A stretch of 64,000 bases of DNA, taken from the NCBI GenBank assembly GCA_012960975.1, contig DUAE01000033.1:40610-104609 (forward strand), written 5' to 3'. The translations under genes and the position numbers were made by a program. The notes beneath the pieces were generated by a model. It saw only the letters and a program-made list of their open reading frames with translations, was not told the origin of the DNA and made no database searches. Shown here piece by piece: positions 33,744 to 42,140 of this stretch. Within the stretch, counting starts at the first letter, position 1; every line of letters begins with the position of its first letter. The stretch is from Candidatus Poseidoniales archaeon (GTDB lineage Archaea > Thermoplasmatota > Poseidoniia > Poseidoniales > Thalassarchaeaceae).

Positions 33744-34631
33744 TTATTCGCCGTCCCAAATTCCTTCATTAATCATGAATTCCATGACTCTTTCAGAAAC
33801 ATTCGCTCTGTTTCCACCACGAACGCCCGTTGCAGATACTGCGAATACCTCTGGAGGTATGTTGTCAGCCTCGCGGAGTTCGTAGCCTACATTTCGGCCG
33901 TAAGAAATTGCTTCAATATCAGGCATAACCCATGCCTCAACATCTTCGTCGGCGTACCTATGCTCAATCATCCTCTTGCGAACATCTGTTGAGAAGGGGT
34001 CTGAATCTGATACGGGAGTGTCTCGGATACCAACAACTACTCTCTTGCCTTGGTCGAGTTCTCTCTGAATGAGCCATTCGTGCCCAACATGCAAGGGTTG
34101 CCAGCGACCTGGAAGAAGAGTTGCCTTGGGTTTCTCAAACAAGTGTGCTAGTTGCTTTACCATGTCGTCAACTGAATTGCCTTCACTACCACTAGAATTC
34201 AAAGTGATGTGTGCACACTTTGGTTCATCGAAGGGATCGCTAATGCCTGTGAAACTGGATATCTCGCCGGTGCGAGCCTTTGCATAGAGGCCTTTCACAT
34301 CTCTTTCCTCGCAAACTTCGAGAGAGGTTGAGATGTGTACCATTACTGCATTATCTGGGAGAATTTCTAGGATCTTCTCTCGCACGTCTTCGTAAGGAGT
34401 GATGAATGAACAAATAACATCTGTGTGCTTTGAGATCATATTCGCCATCTTAGCAATACCGAGAAGGTGTCTTTCTCGTCCTTCGCGACTAAAATCGTGG
34501 TTAGAGAAGAAGTCTCTTATCGTGTCGCCATCAAGCACTTCACAACCATATATGTCTGCCGCAGCCATAGCGATTGTCGTTTTTCCTGCTCCGGAAAGAC
34601 CTGTAAACCAAACTACCTTGTTGCTCATCAT
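33744..34631 (-). CDS. cysC: Adenylyl-sulfate kinase fused to C-terminal HxGH nucleotidyltransferase domain
   Basis: WFTGLSGAGKTT, LDGD, RDVKGLY, FTGISDPF, then GRWQPLHVGH...YGRNVGY...VSATGVR. Confidence 0.9.
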   Translation of the reverse strand: MMSNKVVWFTGLSGAGKTTIAMAAADIYGCEVLDGDTIRDFFSNHDFSREGRERHLLGIAKMANMISKHTDVICSFITPYEDVREKILEILPDNAVMVHISTSLEVCEERDVKGLYAKARTGEISSFTGISDPFDEPKCAHITLNSSGSEGNSVDDMVKQLAHLFEKPKATLLPGRWQPLHVGHEWLIQRELDQGKRVVVGIRDTPVSDSDPFSTDVRKRMIEHRYADEDVEAWVMPDIEAISYGRNVGYELREADNIPPEVFAVSATGVRGGNRANVSERVMEFMINEGIWDGE

Positions 34632-34740
34632 TACACCTTCTGGGACTGGGTCGAAATATGGCCTGTATTTCATTGCGACGGATGGTTGAGGTCTTTACTA
34701 AAGTGTGAATTCCTATATCTGAAGGACGAGGGGGGGTTCT

Positions 34741-35634
34741 ATGGAGGCCGGGCAGCCAGTGGTTCCTGAAGTCGGTGCTTTTCTTCTAGGTGCACCCAAG
34801 GCAGGCACCACTTGGTTAGCAGATGCCCTTTCTCAACACCCAGGTATTTGTGTATCTAATCCTAAGGAGCCGAATATTGTAGCCACGCACAAAGGAACTT
34901 TTTCTAGAGACGATTCGCCACCGAACTGGAAGGCATATACTGGCTGTTTCGTAGAAAACGGAGTTCGAATAGATTGTTCGGTTCACGCATTGGCCTGCCC
35001 AATCGCTCCTCGGAGAATTAGTGAAACTTGGCCTGATGCGAAATTGATTATTTCTCTACGGGAGCCGGTCAGTCGCACGGTTTCTCATTGGAATATGGCC
35101 ATCAGCACAGAGGAAGATAAAGAAAATAATTTGGATTGGAATGATTTTGAAGTGGCTTGGGCCGACTCTCATTTACAGTGTGATACGCTCTATGGTTCGT
35201 CCATCTCAAGGTGGTTGGAATTTTTTGATTTGGATTCTATTTTGATTATTGATGCAAAGAGAATGAGGATGGAACCATTGAAGGTTTTGAAAGAAATTTG
35301 TGAGCACATTGGCGTCGATGATTATTCCTTTAATTTAGATATGGTACACAACACAAATACTGCTTCTGATCGGCGGCGCCCCACTCTATTCGGCCGCCTA
35401 TTTCGTAGCCTTGCGAATTTATTACCTAATTTCGTAAAGAGACCTATTGTGAAGCGATTACAAAGAAAGGGCGTGGATGTATACAAAATACCAGTTCTAT
35501 CTAGTAAAGCCCCTGAGAAGCGGGAAATCACTGATGCGCAACGATTGATTCTGGCAGAAAAGGTGAATGAAGACCTTTTACTTTTGGAAAAATTGACTGG
35601 TTTTTCAAACCCCGATTGGCCGATTCAGTCCTGA
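34741..35634 (+). CDS. PAPS-dependent sulfotransferase
   Basis: 5'-PSB loop GAPKAGTTWL, KEP, 3'-PB motif LREPVSRTVSHW. Confidence 0.88.
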   Translation: MEAGQPVVPEVGAFLLGAPKAGTTWLADALSQHPGICVSNPKEPNIVATHKGTFSRDDSPPNWKAYTGCFVENGVRIDCSVHALACPIAPRRISETWPDAKLIISLREPVSRTVSHWNMAISTEEDKENNLDWNDFEVAWADSHLQCDTLYGSSISRWLEFFDLDSILIIDAKRMRMEPLKVLKEICEHIGVDDYSFNLDMVHNTNTASDRRRPTLFGRLFRSLANLLPNFVKRPIVKRLQRKGVDVYKIPVLSSKAPEKREITDAQRLILAEKVNEDLLLLEKLTGFSNPDWPIQS

Positions 35635-36437
35635 TGAGCTATCCATTGCTCGTTCCAACGTTCGTCTGCTGCGACCATGAAAAATGGGTTTAATATATTG
35701 TCAACTAAATCATAATCAAGCGTTTTACCAGAAGGCCCTAACACACAACCTCCAGCACCGGTGACTACTGCGTGTGCTGCTGCTATATCCCAACAAGAAG
35801 TGGGCCCAAATCGAGGGTATAAGTCGGCATTACCTTCAGCTACAATACACGCCTTCAAAGAAGAACCCATTCTAATTAAGTCATAATTTCCGAGAGTTTT
35901 TGCAAAAGATTCGTCTTTCTCCCCTCTGTGTGATCCGCTTGCGACTAGCCTTATTGGGTTAGGGGGATTTGATGGGTTTACTCTCATCAAACCAGAACCA
36001 TTTGGGCCCTGTCTTTCTGAAGGATGTAATGCTCCCCCCCACCAAGTAGTATTCGTCACAGGCGCATGAACAACCCCGAAAAGTGGTGACCAACGGTTAC
36101 CGTTTTTCTTCATCAAGGCGATATTAACCGTAAACATCCCATTCCGCTTGATAAATTCCTTTGTCCCATCGAGAGGATCGACCAACCAACAAGTGTTACT
36201 CGAAAGAGGGTCGCCTACATTACCTTCCTCCGAAACAATTGGGAAGTTGTTCAATGACTGTAATCCCTCGACAATGACGTTGTGCGCTGCGATGTCGGCT
36301 TCTGTCAAAGGTGAATTATCACTTTTATTAGAAATTTCAAATCCTTCTGCGCGATTATATATTTCTAAAATCGCAAGCCCTGCATCTTCTGCAAGTTTGA
36401 CAATAGAATCTGCGTCCAAGGGCGTCACTCCGATCAA
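35625..36437 (-). CDS. cysQ: 3'(2'),5'-bisphosphate nucleotidase (PAP phosphatase)
   Basis: KSDNSPLTEAD, SEEG, WLVDPLDGTKEF, GSSLK, YPRFGPT, WDIAAAH. Confidence 0.92.
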   Translation of the reverse strand: MIGVTPLDADSIVKLAEDAGLAILEIYNRAEGFEISNKSDNSPLTEADIAAHNVIVEGLQSLNNFPIVSEEGNVGDPLSSNTCWLVDPLDGTKEFIKRNGMFTVNIALMKKNGNRWSPLFGVVHAPVTNTTWWGGALHPSERQGPNGSGLMRVNPSNPPNPIRLVASGSHRGEKDESFAKTLGNYDLIRMGSSLKACIVAEGNADLYPRFGPTSCWDIAAAHAVVTGAGGCVLGPSGKTLDYDLVDNILNPFFMVAADERWNEQWIAHQD

Positions 36438-36988
36438 AAATCTTGCATTTCATCAGCAGCAGTTTCAAGCTTTGTTCGTGCCTCTTCACTTAGATGATAG
36501 AGGAAGGGGTCTTCGTCCCCTACAATTTCTTTCCAAGAAGACATCGTTCTAGCCCAAATTTCCTGTTCCGAATTCCATTCTAACCAACGATCAACGAAAT
36601 CGCAATGGCGTTGTATCTCATCATCATCATCAGACATTTTTCTCAAAATTGTATTGGTTTGTGCAAGTAGCATACCAAATGGGGCGTTTACTTTGTATGT
36701 TGTAAATGGATTACGTTCTTGCACAACCGTTAGGTGTTCGCGCCAAAGGCCGAATGTAACATCGTAAACCCAGCCAATTAACAGAACTATGGACAGGACC
36801 CCCAGACTAATTCCAATTAAACCAAGATAAGTTGGTTGTATCCCGAATACCGGGTCCATCGCTTTGAATCTCCAACTCACTAATGGCCAGAGGAGGAGGG
36901 TAAGGGTTGTACACCAAAATCCCATTGAAATCAGGGTTTGGCTTTGTTGAATGCGCCAATATTGGCGCATGAAGGATTTCTTCAGCAC
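36434..36988 (-). CDS. Two-TM hypothetical membrane protein, coupled to cysQ
   Basis: 2 TM helices, ERNPF motif, 4-nt overlap with cysQ. Start uncertain (36970-37036). Confidence 0.7.
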   Translation of the reverse strand: MLKKSFMRQYWRIQQSQTLISMGFWCTTLTLLLWPLVSWRFKAMDPVFGIQPTYLGLIGISLGVLSIVLLIGWVYDVTFGLWREHLTVVQERNPFTTYKVNAPFGMLLAQTNTILRKMSDDDDEIQRHCDFVDRWLEWNSEQEIWARTMSSWKEIVGDEDPFLYHLSEEARTKLETAADEMQDF

Positions 36989-37083
36989 AGCATCGCCTCT
37001 CATGATTCTGTTTTCACCGTTGCGCGTCCAGGTCAAGTGAAAGTTTGGTTAGATTACTCCTTAATCATTTCCAAAATGATTGG

Positions 37084-40000
37084 TTATTCCTGAATAATCT
37101 CTTGTTGCATTGGATGCTCTACGATCTCTTGCTCAACCGGTTTCCTTAGTTTCAAGTATCCAATTGTACCAATAATTGTGAACACAACGATTATCGCAAC
37201 GATGAGTCCAGTCATTCCAATTGTAGAAGATGAGGTGCCTTCAGTTGATGGTTGAGAATTATTTTCCTCTTGTTGTTGTGGTGAAATGATTGTAAACGGT
37301 GTTGATGATTGATTCAATACTGAAACTTCTCCAATGCGATTGGTAATGGAAAGAACCCAAGGTTGACTCCAAGTCCCTTCTTCAAATCCTGTATTAATTA
37401 GGAGAGAGAGTCCAAGTTGGCCTTGTGAGGAAAGTTCTCCTACCACTGTAGTTTCTTGAATGAATGATGTTGCCCCCAACACTGTTAATGAAACATCCAT
37501 TGGAAAGGTTCCATCAGTATTGCTGATAATACAACTTACTAGGGTTGCAGTTGTATTCATTTGCAGTGATTGTGTCACTTCAGTACACTGAACATCCACG
37601 TTATATTCAATTGCAGAAGAAGCATCTATCGTATTGGAATATTGTTCACATTCGGTACTATCAGTTGCGTCACAAACCAAAACCTGTACTTCAATTGAGT
37701 TATCCAATAATGAAGATAAAGAAACTTCAATCGCCCAATCTCCATCTTGAATAGAGTGATTATCAAGGAGGGTTGTACCTGCACTAGTAATCGTTACCAA
37801 ACCTTCTCTAAAGCGGAATTGGTGTTGTCCGGAAACTGTTAGATTCAAATCATTTGAATCGAATTGCCATGAGCTAATATCTCCTGAAACAAGAGGGGCC
37901 AGTGGTATTATTTCAAACATTGAAGAAGTAATAACCGTTTGACTTGGGTTTCCATATCCATCGAAAAGGAATGCTGTAAGTTCATGAAATCCAATTTCCC
38001 AATCTGTTGTTTGCAATAGAACTGAAGACATTCCTGTATTGATTGGGGAAATGGTTTGATTAGAAACTTGGGTGCCATTGAAAGAAGCAATAACATAGCC
38101 ATTGATCATCTCGTTTTGGTCACTTGACCATTCCAATTGTACAATCATATCACCTATCAATACGATTTCATCATGATTAATTGCTGTTATTACAGGTCCA
38201 GTCAGATCCACTAAACTAAAGGAATAATCAACACCACTTTGGTATCCATCAACATCTTCAGCCATTTGTCCAGTTGTCTCTGAAATATCAACCTCTAATA
38301 GCCATGTCTTCAAATCATCACGGCTTGGAGTCCAATATGCTGTATAGGCATTTTTGTTTTCATCCCAACCAAGCCAAAGAGCCTCTGAATTTCCTTGTGA
38401 AGGCGTTAAGATGACCGATGCCGATAAATCACTTCTATTATGCTGAGATGTAACCGAAAAAATGAATCCATCAACGTGCAATTCCCATGTGCTGGAATCT
38501 TCAAATACAGATATTACATTATGTGTATTATTTGCTGCAGCCATCGTTATTGAAGTGACCGATGGGAAGGCAGGGCCGATTTCAAATGCATAGGCTTGCT
38601 CTACAAATAGCACATTGCCATGAGCATCGACCAGTTCTAATGCAATATAATTTTGAGTTGTAGCTGTAGGGTTAAATCCTGTTGGATTGAAAGAAGCACC
38701 ATACCTTCCTATGGTGGAAAAATAGAATAACGAATTTGTTATTGCTGGTTTTGTACTATCGCCTTGATGAATCCAAGCTGAACCTGTCAGTGTTGTTTCA
38801 CCAATAACATCTCCAACAGTAATTGCAAATGAATCTCCTACACGAATAGATTTTCCAATATTTTCTCCAATTCTATGATATATTGAATAGAGTTGGGGGG
38901 CGATATCATCAATCCACTGTACAGACAGATCTTTGAGAGTCACCTCATAGTTTTGCAAGTTAAATGGAATTGTATCTCCCGAGACTTGCAATGTGTATTG
39001 AGATAAACAAGATGATATGGCATTATACCAATCATTACAAGTTGCAAATGCATATTGTGTTAGGCTTGATTTCAAATCAATATCATGTGTCCAAGACCAA
39101 GACATCTGAGGATGTTTAGCATCCAATTGTACTGCCATAGTTGTTGAAATATTGAAAATTAGTTGATTCATTTCAACTCCATCTGTTCCAATCGTTCCAC
39201 TACTCGGCCATGCATTGATTAATTGTTGAGTAGTGAACTCAATGTCAACTCCTCCTAATTCTGAATTCATAGCCCCAGTATAAACTGTTGAACTACCCAA
39301 CATCACCTCAATTGTATCTGTGGCAGAATTAATTGGCCAATCTATCCATATATTGAGAGATGATGTTGGAATTGCAAATGTTGGAATTGAAATGTTAACT
39401 GTGTGTGAATTAGAATTACTCACAATCGTAGCATTATCTGAATAACCAATTGATTGTGAAAGTGGACCCAAAAGTGTGCTTCCACCTAGCATAGTCATCT
39501 CAAGATTATTGAGAATATGTGCATCATCCCAGAATAACGTATAGTCGCTCAATTCTGGAGAGTGTGTACCTGTACGATTGAATTGATAAGAAAATTGTAC
39601 AGCAGTTAACCGCAGTAATATTTGGTGTGATAAATTGCCTATATTCCAATCACTCCAATCAGTAGAAGTATCTGTTGTTAAGCCAGAAATTGTGTATCTA
39701 TATTTGAATATTAAACTTGAATTTACTGGAATTGTTGAAGTGTGATTTATCCATCCATCAATAATTTCTCCGCCATTTGGCGACCATGCATCGGTAATGA
39801 AAGAACCGTCATTCTCATCGACCTCGTTTGAAACTGTATAGCCTGCCCAAGTAGAGGAACTGTTGACTCCAGTTGAACCTGAAGAACCCGGCACCCCAGT
39901 TGAACCGGTTCCATATGGTTGGCCTCCACTACCACCACTACCAGCTGAAACAGAAATAGTTCCTTGATTGTAATAATTGGAGACTTTGGTCATTATAGTA

Positions 40001-41082
40001 ATACGGCCGCCGCCGCCGCCGCCGCCGCCATCTCCGCCATGGAAGAGACCGATGCAGGCACCTGAACAGAAACTAGGGGCACCATGCCCACCATCTCCGC
40101 CAACCGCTTCAATAATGCCACCTAAGTCGACATTTACTGTATTTGCTTTAATGAAAATTGAACCTCCACTTCCACCACCAGCACCTGAACCACCTGGTCC
40201 TGAGCCTCCTGAAATCGGATGGCCATTTGTACCATTCTCTCCATTGGATTGGATTGTTCCATTAACATCAATTTGTTCTGCAAATATTCGTATATATCCG
40301 CCGCCGTTTCCACCGCCTGCAGTTGGATGATTTGGACTACTGACTGAACCGCCTTGTGAGCCCGGTTCGGTAGAATTTCCATAGGATGATCCGCCATTAC
40401 TGGGGCCACCTCCACCACTGCCGCCACTGCCGCCATGACCTGCGCCACCGCCGCCATCACTGTAGCCATTGATATTTGCAACAATTGAACCACCAGCACC
40501 AGTACCACCACTACTTATTGCGTTTGCAGAAATGGTTGTTCCAGCCGCAACAACCAGTATTCTAACGGTAATCGTTAGGTTTCCAGTAGCAGTTATTGAG
40601 CCACAAGTTTGGACCCCACAACTTAAATTAAGAGTATCATAACTATGAGAACCTGACCATTGAACGGCATTTTGAATGGTAGTAGAGTTATTTCCTGACC
40701 CTGGCGGTCCTGCATTTGCATTGATTAGTTCAACGCCCGTTGTAGTTACAAATGTATTATTGAGTGTTCCGATCGTTTGAGCATTTGCCATATTATAATA
40801 CATTGATTGAGTTGAAGAATGTGGTAACACTTCTACTCCAACACTTGCATTGAGTAAGCGATGCCCTCCTTGATGAAGAAAAATAGCAGCACCCCCCATA
40901 TCGGCCATTATTGTAGTGGTTGGTGAACCACTGGAGAAAGTGTTGACATCAACGATTTGACTAACTTTTGATGAATTATCAAGTTCTAATAACTCTGATT
41001 CCATAAACAATGGAGAAATCGATGAAATTATTAGAAGAATGCTCAAAAAAACAACTTCTCTTGTATATGCATTGTTTGCCAT
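37084..41082 (-). CDS. Large cell-surface protein: signal peptide, Gly-rich domain, beta-rich repeats, C-terminal TM anchor
   Basis: About 1330 aa, GGGGAGHGG/GGGSGGSI repeats, more than 20 N-x-S/T sequons, TM helix followed by KLRK. Confidence 0.85.
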   Translation of the reverse strand: MANNAYTREVVFLSILLIISSISPLFMESELLELDNSSKVSQIVDVNTFSSGSPTTTIMADMGGAAIFLHQGGHRLLNASVGVEVLPHSSTQSMYYNMANAQTIGTLNNTFVTTTGVELINANAGPPGSGNNSTTIQNAVQWSGSHSYDTLNLSCGVQTCGSITATGNLTITVRILVVAAGTTISANAISSGGTGAGGSIVANINGYSDGGGGAGHGGSGGSGGGGPSNGGSSYGNSTEPGSQGGSVSSPNHPTAGGGNGGGYIRIFAEQIDVNGTIQSNGENGTNGHPISGGSGPGGSGAGGGSGGSIFIKANTVNVDLGGIIEAVGGDGGHGAPSFCSGACIGLFHGGDGGGGGGGGRITIMTKVSNYYNQGTISVSAGSGGSGGQPYGTGSTGVPGSSGSTGVNSSSTWAGYTVSNEVDENDGSFITDAWSPNGGEIIDGWINHTSTIPVNSSLIFKYRYTISGLTTDTSTDWSDWNIGNLSHQILLRLTAVQFSYQFNRTGTHSPELSDYTLFWDDAHILNNLEMTMLGGSTLLGPLSQSIGYSDNATIVSNSNSHTVNISIPTFAIPTSSLNIWIDWPINSATDTIEVMLGSSTVYTGAMNSELGGVDIEFTTQQLINAWPSSGTIGTDGVEMNQLIFNISTTMAVQLDAKHPQMSWSWTHDIDLKSSLTQYAFATCNDWYNAISSCLSQYTLQVSGDTIPFNLQNYEVTLKDLSVQWIDDIAPQLYSIYHRIGENIGKSIRVGDSFAITVGDVIGETTLTGSAWIHQGDSTKPAITNSLFYFSTIGRYGASFNPTGFNPTATTQNYIALELVDAHGNVLFVEQAYAFEIGPAFPSVTSITMAAANNTHNVISVFEDSSTWELHVDGFIFSVTSQHNRSDLSASVILTPSQGNSEALWLGWDENKNAYTAYWTPSRDDLKTWLLEVDISETTGQMAEDVDGYQSGVDYSFSLVDLTGPVITAINHDEIVLIGDMIVQLEWSSDQNEMINGYVIASFNGTQVSNQTISPINTGMSSVLLQTTDWEIGFHELTAFLFDGYGNPSQTVITSSMFEIIPLAPLVSGDISSWQFDSNDLNLTVSGQHQFRFREGLVTITSAGTTLLDNHSIQDGDWAIEVSLSSLLDNSIEVQVLVCDATDSTECEQYSNTIDASSAIEYNVDVQCTEVTQSLQMNTTATLVSCIISNTDGTFPMDVSLTVLGATSFIQETTVVGELSSQGQLGLSLLINTGFEEGTWSQPWVLSITNRIGEVSVLNQSSTPFTIISPQQQEENNSQPSTEGTSSSTIGMTGLIVAIIVVFTIIGTIGYLKLRKPVEQEIVEHPMQQEIIQE

Positions 41083-41157
41083 AATATGTGATATGATATG
41101 GCTCTTAATAGATTTTTTCGGAATCACTCCTTTTTCACCTTGGGCGATGAAGGGTCA

Positions 41158-42087
41158 TCAGGATTCGTCAATAATGAGATTTGAATCAATATATTTCGAA
41201 AGATTTTTTTGAAATTCAAGTTCTTCAGAAAAAACGGTTTCTAGTTCTTTTCTAACTTCTTCGGACAACTCTGGCCTTCGATAGGGTTTGGGTTTGAAGG
41301 CAGGGGAGCGTATTGGGTCTAGAATTGCCTTTCGTAATTTCTGAGTGGGGATTAGAATTTTTACCAAAGATACTAGTAAAGTTGGTGGCGTTCTAACAAA
41401 CCGTGCCCATCTTGCAGAATTTAATATCCCACTTTCATTTTGCTTTGATAAATTTATATCGTCTGAAAATTTTTCAATCCCCAACCATTCTAGTATTTCG
41501 TTCAGTGTTTGGAGGGGGGCTGCTTTGATGGTATTTATTGGTATGATCCTAACTCTGTCGCCTAATTTTTCTACCCATTCAAGAACGGGCTGTTTTAATT
41601 GGGGAAATCGCATAAAACTGTATGTTTGTGGGTTATTTTCATCGATTACAAATCCTGCCTCGCGGCAAAAATCTATCATTTCATCTTGTGTGAGTGTGTA
41701 ATCAATCAATCTTTTTCGATGTTCTTGATGCATGCTTAACATTATATCTATTGGATCTCGGAGTGTAATTATCACCTTCGCTTCTGGCATTTGATCTTTA
41801 ATTGAAGATAGTGCCCTTGTTGAATAGAGGTGAAATGCGGATTTGTCCATTACGTAATTTTCCTTGTTATAGTTAGAAAGATCTGCATATGGAGCTAGGA
41901 TTCCGATTCCCTTTGGATGTATTGGAGAGGTTGGAAATTCTGCAACGCCGGCGATTAAAAATTGACTCTCATTTGGCCATGGATGGTAAATCTGTTTATG
42001 GGACCTGAGCCAATGCATCAACGAGGTTGTGCCGGTTTTTGGACCGCCGACAAGAAGTAAATTTGGCGCGGGTTCGAATCGGTGCAT
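41158..42087 (-). CDS. PAPS-dependent sulfotransferase
   Basis: GGPKTGTTSL, DKSAFHL, ITLRDPIDIMLSM. Confidence 0.85.
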   Translation of the reverse strand: MHRFEPAPNLLLVGGPKTGTTSLMHWLRSHKQIYHPWPNESQFLIAGVAEFPTSPIHPKGIGILAPYADLSNYNKENYVMDKSAFHLYSTRALSSIKDQMPEAKVIITLRDPIDIMLSMHQEHRKRLIDYTLTQDEMIDFCREAGFVIDENNPQTYSFMRFPQLKQPVLEWVEKLGDRVRIIPINTIKAAPLQTLNEILEWLGIEKFSDDINLSKQNESGILNSARWARFVRTPPTLLVSLVKILIPTQKLRKAILDPIRSPAFKPKPYRRPELSEEVRKELETVFSEELEFQKNLSKYIDSNLIIDES

Positions 42088-42140
42088 AACAAATCCTCGA
42101 CCCTTGGGCGGGCTATATTGACTTGAACGCCACGCTCTGA

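Follow-up and report, generated by a model that had tools for sequence, protein, structure and literature searches.

How can an archaeon that encodes an adenosine 5'-phosphosulfate (APS) kinase, two sulfotransferases and a phosphatase for the spent sulfate donor make that donor, when no recognised ATP sulfurylase is found in its genome? The question is raised by a window of 64,000 nucleotides, the whole stretch of DNA analysed here, on contig C33 (DUAE01000033.1) of a Poseidoniales genome of Marine Group IIb (MGIIb; GCA_012960975.1, 1.59 Mb in 59 contigs, 82% complete). Its close relatives are all metagenome-assembled genomes (MAGs) of Poseidoniales and Thalassarchaeaceae from the same group. 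An original prediction, made from the letters of the window, had described six neighbouring genes as a self-contained sulfation module: an APS-kinase fusion, two sulfotransferases (ST1 and ST2), CysQ, a protein with two transmembrane segments (2-TM) and a giant surface protein. All six open reading frames (ORFs) were recovered where it had placed them, with families taken from Pfam and NCBIfam. Based on gene content, genomic context and conserved motifs, we consider it probable, at roughly two chances in three, that the kinase fusion, hereafter K-NT for its kinase and nucleotidyltransferase (NT) domains, is a minimal single-chain synthase of 3'-phosphoadenosine 5'-phosphosulfate (PAPS) with a non-canonical ATP sulfurylase domain, feeding cytoplasmic and probably glycan-directed sulfotransferases.

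The missing ATP sulfurylase and its slot

PAPS synthesis requires an ATP sulfurylase besides an APS kinase, and the kinase alone is insufficient. In the window's own genome, at 82% completeness, neither known kind of ATP sulfurylase (Sat or CysD) was found above cut-off, and neither was a PAPS/APS reductase (CysH) or a sulfite reductase domain; the absence of these reductases had been part of the original prediction. Its attribution of donor synthesis to a cysC fusion holds for the APS kinase, which is confirmed, but leaves the ATP sulfurylase missing and the fused domain unexplained. Three possibilities follow: a broken pathway, a sulfurylase gene missed by the assembly, or a first step performed by the domain that is fused to the kinase. 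ST1 and ST2 are the sole sulfotransferases of this genome. A search for sulfate transporters returned no clear SulP protein in it, the weak match being a permease of the xanthine/uracil type; one PHO4/PiT homologue and two weak DASS matches are, by family membership, candidates for sulfate entry.

Across a comparative set of 151 genomes of the order Poseidoniales, most of them 80–97% complete MAGs, Sat (PF01747) was found in none, with control genomes matching the same model. Full-length CysD was detected in 19 (E = 1e-50 to 1e-58), exactly those that also carry a ~644-aa CysN/CysC ORF, the C-terminus of which is 37–41% identical to the window kinase. The remaining PF01507 matches are partial (20–28 bits, in ORFs of ~320–380 aa), as is a 19.6-bit PP-loop match in the window's own genome, and from these scores and lengths they are read as other PP-loop enzymes. 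K-NT occurs at ≥74% identity in 32 of the 151 genomes, in four of them as a fragment at a contig end, and a single-protein scan of genome contigs with K-NT matched close Poseidoniales relatives only. Cross-tabulation gives 31 genomes with K-NT only, 18 with CysD only, 101 with neither and a single genome (G132) with both; full-length CysD was thus not found in 31 of the 32 K-NT genomes. These counts are descriptive and carry no statistical test, because the genomes are related and mostly incomplete. K-NT genomes without a known sulfurylase include G027, a single contig of 1.6 Mb, and G023, 97% complete in five contigs. As for G132, its contig C43 (~4.6 kb or more) carries K-NT, a broken ST1 (four TAG stops within the match) and a 2-TM gene, all 92–95% identical to the window's genus, and the rest of the genome belongs to another family and has separate CysD/CysNC and 2-TM genes; the contig is probably mis-binned. 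No CysH-type or sulfite-reductase gene was found, which agrees with the earlier view of the locus as serving sulfate transfer rather than assimilation.

The two sets of donor-synthesis genes share one genomic slot. In 20 loci fetched around K-NT, the fusion adjoins prefoldin without exception (20/20), within a backbone ordered OMPdc-RR-FtsY-Pfd-[...]-TM2-[...]-L18Ae-orf164-PcrB-orf223-bCASP, where Pfd is prefoldin and TM2 the 2-TM gene. Housekeeping genes thus flank the sulfation genes: FtsY and prefoldin to one side, L18Ae and PcrB/GGGP synthase to the other. Eight loci were fetched around CysNC, six from the window's own family and two from another family. In all six of the former, CysQ, CysD and CysN/CysC fill the slot between the 2-TM gene and prefoldin; in the latter two, no backbone gene lies within the fetched 20 kb. 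Two genomes, G121 and G133, have the order L18Ae-ST2-TM2-CysQ-ST1-CysD-CysN/CysC-Pfd, and K-NT genomes of the same genus have L18Ae-ST2-TM2-CysQ-ST1-K-NT-Pfd. The swapped genes pass curated models (TIGR02039 for CysD, 416.8 bits against 396.6; NF004035 for CysN/CysC, 864 against 715). Judged by gene order, this is a natural gene-replacement experiment in which the phosphatase for 3'-phosphoadenosine 5'-phosphate (PAP) and the sulfotransferases stay unchanged, and since both sets occupy the slot interchangeably in sister genomes, K-NT likely does the job of CysD plus CysN/CysC.

A wider census of 80 species-level K-NT loci, 51 of which cover both slot boundaries, shows what accompanies the fusion. 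Among these 51, 29 slots hold TM2-CysQ-K-NT only, 10 add ST1, 10 add both ST1 and ST2, and two hold ST1 and ST2 without CysQ, so that ST1 is present in 22 and ST2 in 12. CysQ adjoins K-NT in 49 of the 51, and CysD/CysNC in 6/6 loci of the window's family, which bears out its inclusion in the module. Where the slot lacks a sulfotransferase, sulfotransferases occur elsewhere in the genome (for instance in 9/9 genomes of genus g9). Taken across relatives, these slot contents indicate a constant donor supply and clean-up combined with a variable sulfotransferase set, and the slot behaves as a swap site for sulfotransferases. The predicted linkage of PAPS genes to sulfotransferases extends to whole genomes: Sulfotransfer_3 proteins were found in 44 of 50 genomes with PAPS-synthesis genes vs. 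11 of 101 without. This table is conservative, since G023, scored as having PAPS genes only, has a Sulfotransfer_2-like ORF in the slot (L040:15190-15939(+), 15.9 bits, below cut-off), and G102, scored as having a sulfotransferase only, has a diverged K-NT.

CysQ passes TIGR01331 marginally (229.2 bits, cut-off 228.8) and matches PF00459 at 147 bits. ST1 scores 48 bits against Sulfotransfer_1 (PF00685) and 43.7 bits against Sulfotransfer_3 (PF13469), and ST2 25.5 and 40.8 bits (cut-offs 22 and 27, respectively). Hydrophobic segments are absent from both sulfotransferases. Among solved structures, those nearest to ST1 are 3rnl and heparan-sulfate 3-O/N-sulfotransferases, and those nearest to ST2 are 3rnl and NDST (E = 1e-5 to 1e-14); ST1 and ST2 both display what we take to be the PAPS-binding motifs, PKxGTT and an R(E/D)Px(4)S that replaces the RxPxxRxxS form. 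Both are hence predicted to be cytoplasmic and of the carbohydrate-sulfotransferase type, in line with the original suggestion of cytoplasmic, probably glycan-directed enzymes. In two relatives, G135 and G065, different Sulfotransfer_1 genes (~33 bits) lie at the position that ST2 or the giant gene takes in the window (L039:12703-13719(-) and L043:12686-13621(-)).

The kinase-nucleotidyltransferase fusion and its relatives

K-NT is divided into an APS kinase at residues ~16–180 and an HxGH nucleotidyltransferase at residues 181–309; because its homologues are mostly 294 aa long, its true start probably lies at 34628, giving a protein of that length. Pfam recognises both parts (APS_kinase, PF01583, 134.5 bits over residues 19–158, cut-off 21.1; CTP_transf_like, PF01467, 25.3 bits over residues 186–252, cut-off 21), and the score against TIGR00455 (133.3 bits) falls slightly below the equivalog cut-off of 138.7. 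In an AlphaFold2 model of the 294-aa protein (predicted local distance difference test, pLDDT, 93.1), the kinase half superimposes in Foldseek on APS kinases of humans, plants, bacteria and archaea, including 2ofx, 8i1m and 5cb8, with root-mean-square deviations (rmsd) of 1.4–2.3 Å and 35–40% identity over 170–174 aligned positions. Sequence comparison with phmmer gives E = 1e-29 against solved APS kinases, with conserved motifs aligned, including the P-loop and LDGD..R. Kinase residues G10, G15, K16 and R38 are invariant in an alignment of K-NT proteins (34 sequences; identity to the query 27–44%, with one at 84%). By these comparisons, the kinase half is a true, full-length APS kinase.

Since the kinase dominated the fold search with the whole fusion, the ~125-aa NT domain was modelled and searched alone (pLDDT 93.2). 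Its nearest fold is that of archaeal nicotinamide mononucleotide adenylyltransferase (NMNAT; E = 3e-4, TMq 0.72, 21% identity), with phosphopantetheine adenylyltransferase (PPAT) also among the neighbours, and its best solved sequence match is the NMNAT MJ0541 (E = 0.004). NCBIfam names the whole protein adenylyl-sulfate kinase and finds weak NMNAT/PPAT-type matches only at residues 185–250. In the window, the domain carries the motifs GRWQPLHVGH, IRDT, PDI..YGRNVGY and VSATGVR. Across the same alignment, invariant positions are G174, R175, P178, H180, G182 and H183 in GRWQPxHxGH, R202 in (V/I)RDT, G244, R245 and G248 in YGRxVGY, and S265 and R270 in ISATxIR; T267 of the ISxTxxR motif is invariant or almost so. 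Both sequence and model thus place the domain in the HxGH nucleotidyltransferase superfamily, outside every curated family. Sat belongs to the same superfamily, with an HxxH motif and an arginine-containing loop, and activating sulfate asks for the same chemistry as with nicotinamide mononucleotide (NMN) or phosphopantetheine, in which an oxyanion attacks the alpha-phosphate of ATP.

The fusion is also unusually conserved. Compared with flanking genes (FtsY, CysQ, PcrB and prefoldin, loci L042-L055), K-NT proteins share 80–93% identity between genera (80–89% in most comparisons) vs. 43–79% for the flanks, whereas third positions of conserved codons are 38–46% identical in K-NT vs. 28–50% in the flanks in most between-genus comparisons. 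Synonymous positions thus diverge about as far as in the neighbouring genes while the protein stays conserved, which indicates unusually strong purifying selection. Against two genomes of genus g6, third-position identity of K-NT reaches 62–63% vs. 37–52% for the flanks, which hints at a more recent exchange with this genus.

In the mechanism we propose, a PAPS-dependent sulfation module would occupy a conserved slot among housekeeping genes of MGIIb, bounded by those for prefoldin and L18Ae. The C-terminal NT domain would adenylylate sulfate (ATP + sulfate -> APS + pyrophosphate), and the N-terminal APS kinase, assigned by homology, would convert APS to PAPS. Fusion to the kinase would drive the unfavourable sulfurylase reaction onward, in the manner of animal PAPS synthase, and CysQ would hydrolyse the inhibitory product PAP. 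One to three cytoplasmic sulfotransferases would then transfer sulfate to envelope precursors of glycan or lipid-linked type, a putative assignment of the acceptor.

The pairing of kinase and NT domain recurs independently many times, well beyond the order. When the 129-aa domain was compared with 1.84 billion representative proteins, it matched 687 clusters at E ≤ 1e-3, 226 of them at E ≤ 1e-10. Among the best 150 of the 687, 44 are fused as in the window, 24 in the opposite order (NT-K), 61 are proteins of ≤170 aa (some of them fragments) and 21 are other or unclear. In a sister family of the class, kinase and NT are separate adjacent genes, and three such genomes (91–97% complete) lack both Sat and CysD. 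At two loci of this family (L161:9236-10332 in G309 and L162:2639-3405 in G337) the separate kinase-like and NT genes overlap, and the G309 kinase ORF has an extra C-terminal part resembling haloacid dehalogenase (HAD) hydrolases.

Viral genomes hold the same pair. A motif scan of IMG/VR yielded at least 600 stretches and at least 261 confirmed relatives, and of the best 80 loci examined (L164-L243), 27 encode a fused K-NT, 47 adjacent kinase and NT genes in either order, five the NT only and one the kinase only. A home-made sulfotransferase profile detected 19 ORFs in the fetched flanks of 18 of these 80 loci, most directly upstream of the kinase, and all ten that were tested pass Pfam sulfotransferase cut-offs. 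Among the immediate neighbours (150 of 154 scanned), the most frequent families are DUF2061 (17), Sulfotransfer_1 (14) and Sulfotransfer_3 (13), followed by sugar-nucleotide enzyme and glycosyltransferase families (3–5 each).

A recurrent viral cassette consists of a sulfotransferase, an APS-kinase-like gene, an NT gene and a ~146-aa DUF2061 protein (for example L217:4177-6261 and L211:4174-6344). One ORF, L176:4788-5498, is matched both by the K-NT profile and by phmmer seeded with a viral DUF2061 neighbour, and may be a kinase-DUF2061 fusion. The window's own genome has two tandem DUF2061 genes on a contig other than that of the window (G000:C59:72813-73467; locus L248, 6748-7480), beside a TauE/SafE-family anion transporter, a molybdopterin oxidoreductase with an Fe-S/NrfD subunit and a rhodanese-metallo-beta-lactamase protein. 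From these neighbours, and from its rank as the commonest viral neighbour of kinase and NT genes, DUF2061 may handle a sulfur oxyanion.

Short variants of the fusion come from the Poseidoniales genome G102 and from Salvovirus phages, whose hosts are the plant-associated bacteria Xylella, Xanthomonas and Stenotrophomonas. In Xylella phage Bacata (L147, 29138-29878), a 246-aa coding sequence annotated 'adenylylsulfate kinase' is such a short K-NT, 27% identical to the window's protein and with the NT motifs kept. The 256-aa diverged K-NT of G102 adjoins a Sulfotransfer_1 gene (80 bits) in a sugar-biosynthesis cluster. This cluster (L148, G102:C19:1-9037) also encodes a dehydroquinate (DHQ)-synthase-like protein, an aminotransferase, a radical S-adenosylmethionine (SAM)/SPASM protein, a CMP-sugar-type cytidylyltransferase, a short-chain dehydrogenase/reductase (SDR) and an ATP-binding cassette (ABC) ATPase/transporter; its gene content makes it a candidate for producing an unusual, sulfated sugar in this genome, which is of MGIIa type.

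We favour, with somewhat less confidence than the assignment of K-NT in the window but still above even odds, a more general proposal: the ~110–125-aa HxGH domain, recognisable by GRWQPxHxGH, (V/I)RDT, YGRxVGY and ISATxIR, would be a third, minimal class of ATP sulfurylase, and together with an APS kinase, fused in either order or adjacent, would make up a PAPS synthase smaller than any known so far. The unit would have displaced CysDN/CysC in much of MGIIb, and many marine viruses would carry it with a sulfotransferase and often DUF2061.

Counter-evidence and alternative readings

Several points weigh against a sulfurylase. We infer adenylylation of sulfate by the NT domain from the genes present and their surroundings. 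The listed fold and sequence matches of the domain include no ATP sulfurylase, the nearest being adenylyltransferases of NMN and phosphopantetheine, and the Pfam ATP-sulfurylase model (PF01747) does not match it. Some gene absences are uncertain, most genomes being 80–97% complete MAGs. Eleven genomes have a sulfotransferase with no PAPS genes detected and six have PAPS genes only (90 have neither). In the sister family, the kinase and NT genes lie amid genes of one-carbon metabolism and the SAM cycle (serine hydroxymethyltransferase in both loci, SAM synthetase and S-adenosylhomocysteine hydrolase in G337, a Cys/Met pyridoxal-phosphate enzyme in G309), with no sulfotransferase among the scanned ORFs. 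Missing from the short variants, both in G102 and in the Salvovirus phages, is a stretch of the kinase that contains CEERDVKGLY...FTGISDPFDEP in the window's protein, and the Salvovirus genes adjoin a gene annotated COG3236 / GTP cyclohydrolase II, with no sulfotransferase among their annotated neighbours, most of which are 'hypothetical protein'. Because the short variants and the sister-family context differ in this way, the wider K-NT family is possibly not uniform in function.

The alternative that survives best, though we consider it unlikely, is that the NT domain has a regulatory or nucleotide-binding role as an appendage, or resembles NMNAT in activity and was joined to the kinase for unrelated reasons, and that APS comes from an unrecognised enzyme elsewhere. 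It draws on the same resemblance to NMNAT and PPAT, on the missing match to the sulfurylase model, and on standalone look-alikes, which are common in phages and include two matches annotated NadM or NMNAT; NMNATs of NAD salvage are known in phages. A housekeeping NMNAT role was examined and rejected, as the domain matches the archaeal NMNAT model TIGR01527 at 22.5–23 bits over profile positions 3–63 only (cut-off 181.2), and a separate gene of the same genome scores 77 bits over positions 4–163, making it the better candidate. A dead regulatory domain would hardly keep its catalytic HxGH and ISxTxxR motifs invariant. An appendage would also leave unexplained why K-NT and CysD/CysNC are mutually exclusive (31, 18 and 1 genomes) and share a slot, why kinase and NT are fused in both orders, and why viral cassettes often bring sulfotransferase, kinase and NT together.

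A second alternative concerns the extent of the unit rather than its chemistry: the giant surface protein would be a dedicated substrate and the six genes one functional unit, as originally predicted. Its gene does lie between TM2 and ST2, and the product, which matches no family, is rich in serine and threonine, with a hydrophobic segment at the N-terminus and another at the C-terminus that serves as a membrane anchor. The predicted richness in glycosylation sequons is also real: 27 N-x-S/T sequons amount to 2.0 per 100 aa, vs. a background of 0.58 in 789 ORFs of ≥250 aa, which puts the protein at the 98th percentile, with ~19 expected from its own S/T/N-rich composition. RNA-library contigs from three studies (96–607 bases) match parts of the giant gene (window positions 37000–40500) and of ST2 (41600–42100) at 90–100% identity; these are short contigs from four runs, most of them over the giant gene, silent on strand and expression level, and the libraries may hold DNA, so that the lack of contigs over K-NT, ST1 and CysQ carries no information.

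However, the giant gene stands in the slot only in the window's genome and its congener G081. It is absent from the other 98 of 100 inspected K-NT loci (a set that includes two fetches of the G081 locus), among them that of another congener, G135. Members of its family occur in 56 of the 151 genomes, 51 of which have no PAPS genes and only five of which do. The best match outside the genus, full length at 79% identity, is in G060 (G060:C27:1603-5589), a genome of another family and of a genus in which 0/24 genomes hold a sulfotransferase; the 2-TM protein is ~40% identical to most homologues in that same family. A further match, at 60% and 49% identity, lies in G026 (C92 and C54), of the same other main family as G060. 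GC content across the giant gene is 0.38–0.42 vs. ~0.45 elsewhere, and this low GC suggests recent insertion. By these comparisons the gene is probably a recent lateral transfer between MGIIa and MGIIb lineages, a lineage-specific insert. The protein may nonetheless be glycosylated, even sulfated, in this organism, but a role as dedicated substrate is improbable.

The 2-TM protein, with two hydrophobic segments and an ORF that overlaps cysQ by 4 bp, matches no Pfam (E ≤ 1) or NCBIfam family. Its presence in all 20 first K-NT loci had made it a candidate for a specific K-NT partner, which was rejected when the gene was found in 137 of the 151 genomes, including genera without sulfation genes; it is thus a conserved backbone gene of the order rather than specific to sulfation, and its place in the predicted module falls. 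An identity with DUF2061 was likewise rejected, as the protein has no Pfam match and none to a home-made profile built from viral neighbours, a profile that also included a kinase sequence. As gene order and distribution indicate, the real module is K-NT, CysQ and a variable set of sulfotransferases, with the other two genes mere neighbours (Table 1).

The least probable alternative, that K-NT makes some other 3'-phosphorylated adenylyl compound in the manner of PPAT and dephospho-CoA kinase, appeals to the adenylyltransferase-then-3'-kinase logic common to CoA synthesis, to the short kinases without the KGLY and FTGI motifs, and to the lack of sulfotransferases among scanned or annotated neighbours in the sister family and Salvovirus phages, but we give it little credence for a window kinase that is full length, 35–40% identical to solved APS kinases with its motifs aligned, flanked by two PAPS-type sulfotransferases and CysQ, and interchangeable with CysD/CysNC.

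Table 1. Features of the sulfation locus, in window coordinates
Feature	Position	Strand	Basis or reading
K-NT fusion (APS kinase and small HxGH nucleotidyltransferase)	33744..34673	-	309-aa ORF; proposed single-chain PAPS synthase
NT domain within K-NT	33747..34133	-	proposed ATP sulfurylase (sulfate adenylyltransferase) function
Divergent intergenic region between K-NT and ST1, 67 bp	34674..34740	.	ORF coordinates
Sulfotransferase ST1, predicted cytoplasmic	34741..35634	+	Pfam
CysQ 3'(2'),5'-bisphosphate nucleotidase, PAP removal	35625..36437	-	TIGR01331
2-TM protein, 200 aa, no family	36434..37036	-	conserved backbone gene of the order
Giant type-I surface protein with membrane anchor, rich in S/T/G/N, 1347 aa	37084..41127	-	probable lineage-specific insert
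Sulfotransferase ST2, predicted cytoplasmic	41158..42087	-	Pfam

Known systems and implications

The closest functional parallel to the proposed PAPS synthase is metazoan PAPSS1/2, in which one chain likewise carries an N-terminal APS kinase followed by a sulfate-activating domain, and the product serves sulfotransferases rather than reduction. The kinase domains are 37–40% identical (rmsd ~1.5 Å), whereas PAPSS1/2 is ~620 aa long and K-NT 294 aa, with a C-terminal partner of ~125 aa that matches no ATP-sulfurylase family. CysD with CysN/CysC takes the identical slot beside CysQ, ST1 and ST2 in sister genomes and would have the same pathway output. Its kinase domain is 37–41% identical, but its sulfurylase parts are non-homologous to the NT domain, CysD being a PP-loop ATPase and CysN a GTPase; having no GTPase, K-NT would have no GTP coupling. 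Archaeal NMNAT (MJ0541 and that of M. thermautotrophicus) and PPAT share with the NT domain the Rossmann-like HxGH / ISxTxxR fold, but the NT domain is ~40 residues shorter, has invariant residues of its own (R202, G244, R245 and G248) and is partnered with an APS kinase. Similarity of ST1 and ST2 to heparan-sulfate 3-O-/N-sulfotransferases and 3RNL is low, and ST1 and ST2 have no membrane or Golgi-type anchor.

Part of this picture is already known. Orellana et al. 2019 (PMC6864105) reported cysD, cysN and cysC in MGIIb and described PAPS as a 'sulfate source for sulfotransferases', with the pathway framed as assimilatory sulfate reduction; in MGIIa MAGs they found none of the known sulfate transporters. 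The passages of that article on sulfate, sulfotransferases and PAPS cover the CysDN/CysC version only and do not mention a kinase-nucleotidyltransferase fusion, which its supplementary tables could list. In our set K-NT is the commoner form (32 vs. 19 genomes). No report of a non-canonical ATP sulfurylase or of an APS-kinase/nucleotidyltransferase fusion was found in a literature search that left subscription journals mostly uncovered, so a prior description is possible. The sulfation-module reading is partly known already, and the reading of the fusion as a minimal PAPS synthase is the new part.

Current understanding attributes sulfate activation to two enzyme types, Sat and CysDN. The addition of a third and very small sulfurylase, fused to APS kinase, would, if true, change how the capacity for sulfation and sulfate assimilation is scored in genomes: K-NT proteins are at present annotated just as 'adenylyl-sulfate kinase', which leaves the pathway seemingly incomplete. 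A single-chain PAPS synthase of 294 aa would also be useful for enzymatic sulfation. The unit's presence in many viral contigs suggests an undescribed, virus-encoded sulfation capacity, with which viruses could, if the assignment is true, sulfate host or virion glycans without relying on sulfate activation by the host. MGIIb are among the most abundant planktonic archaea, and their combination of a constant PAPS supply with changing sulfotransferases points to sulfated envelope glycans, likely a target of virus recognition and grazing.

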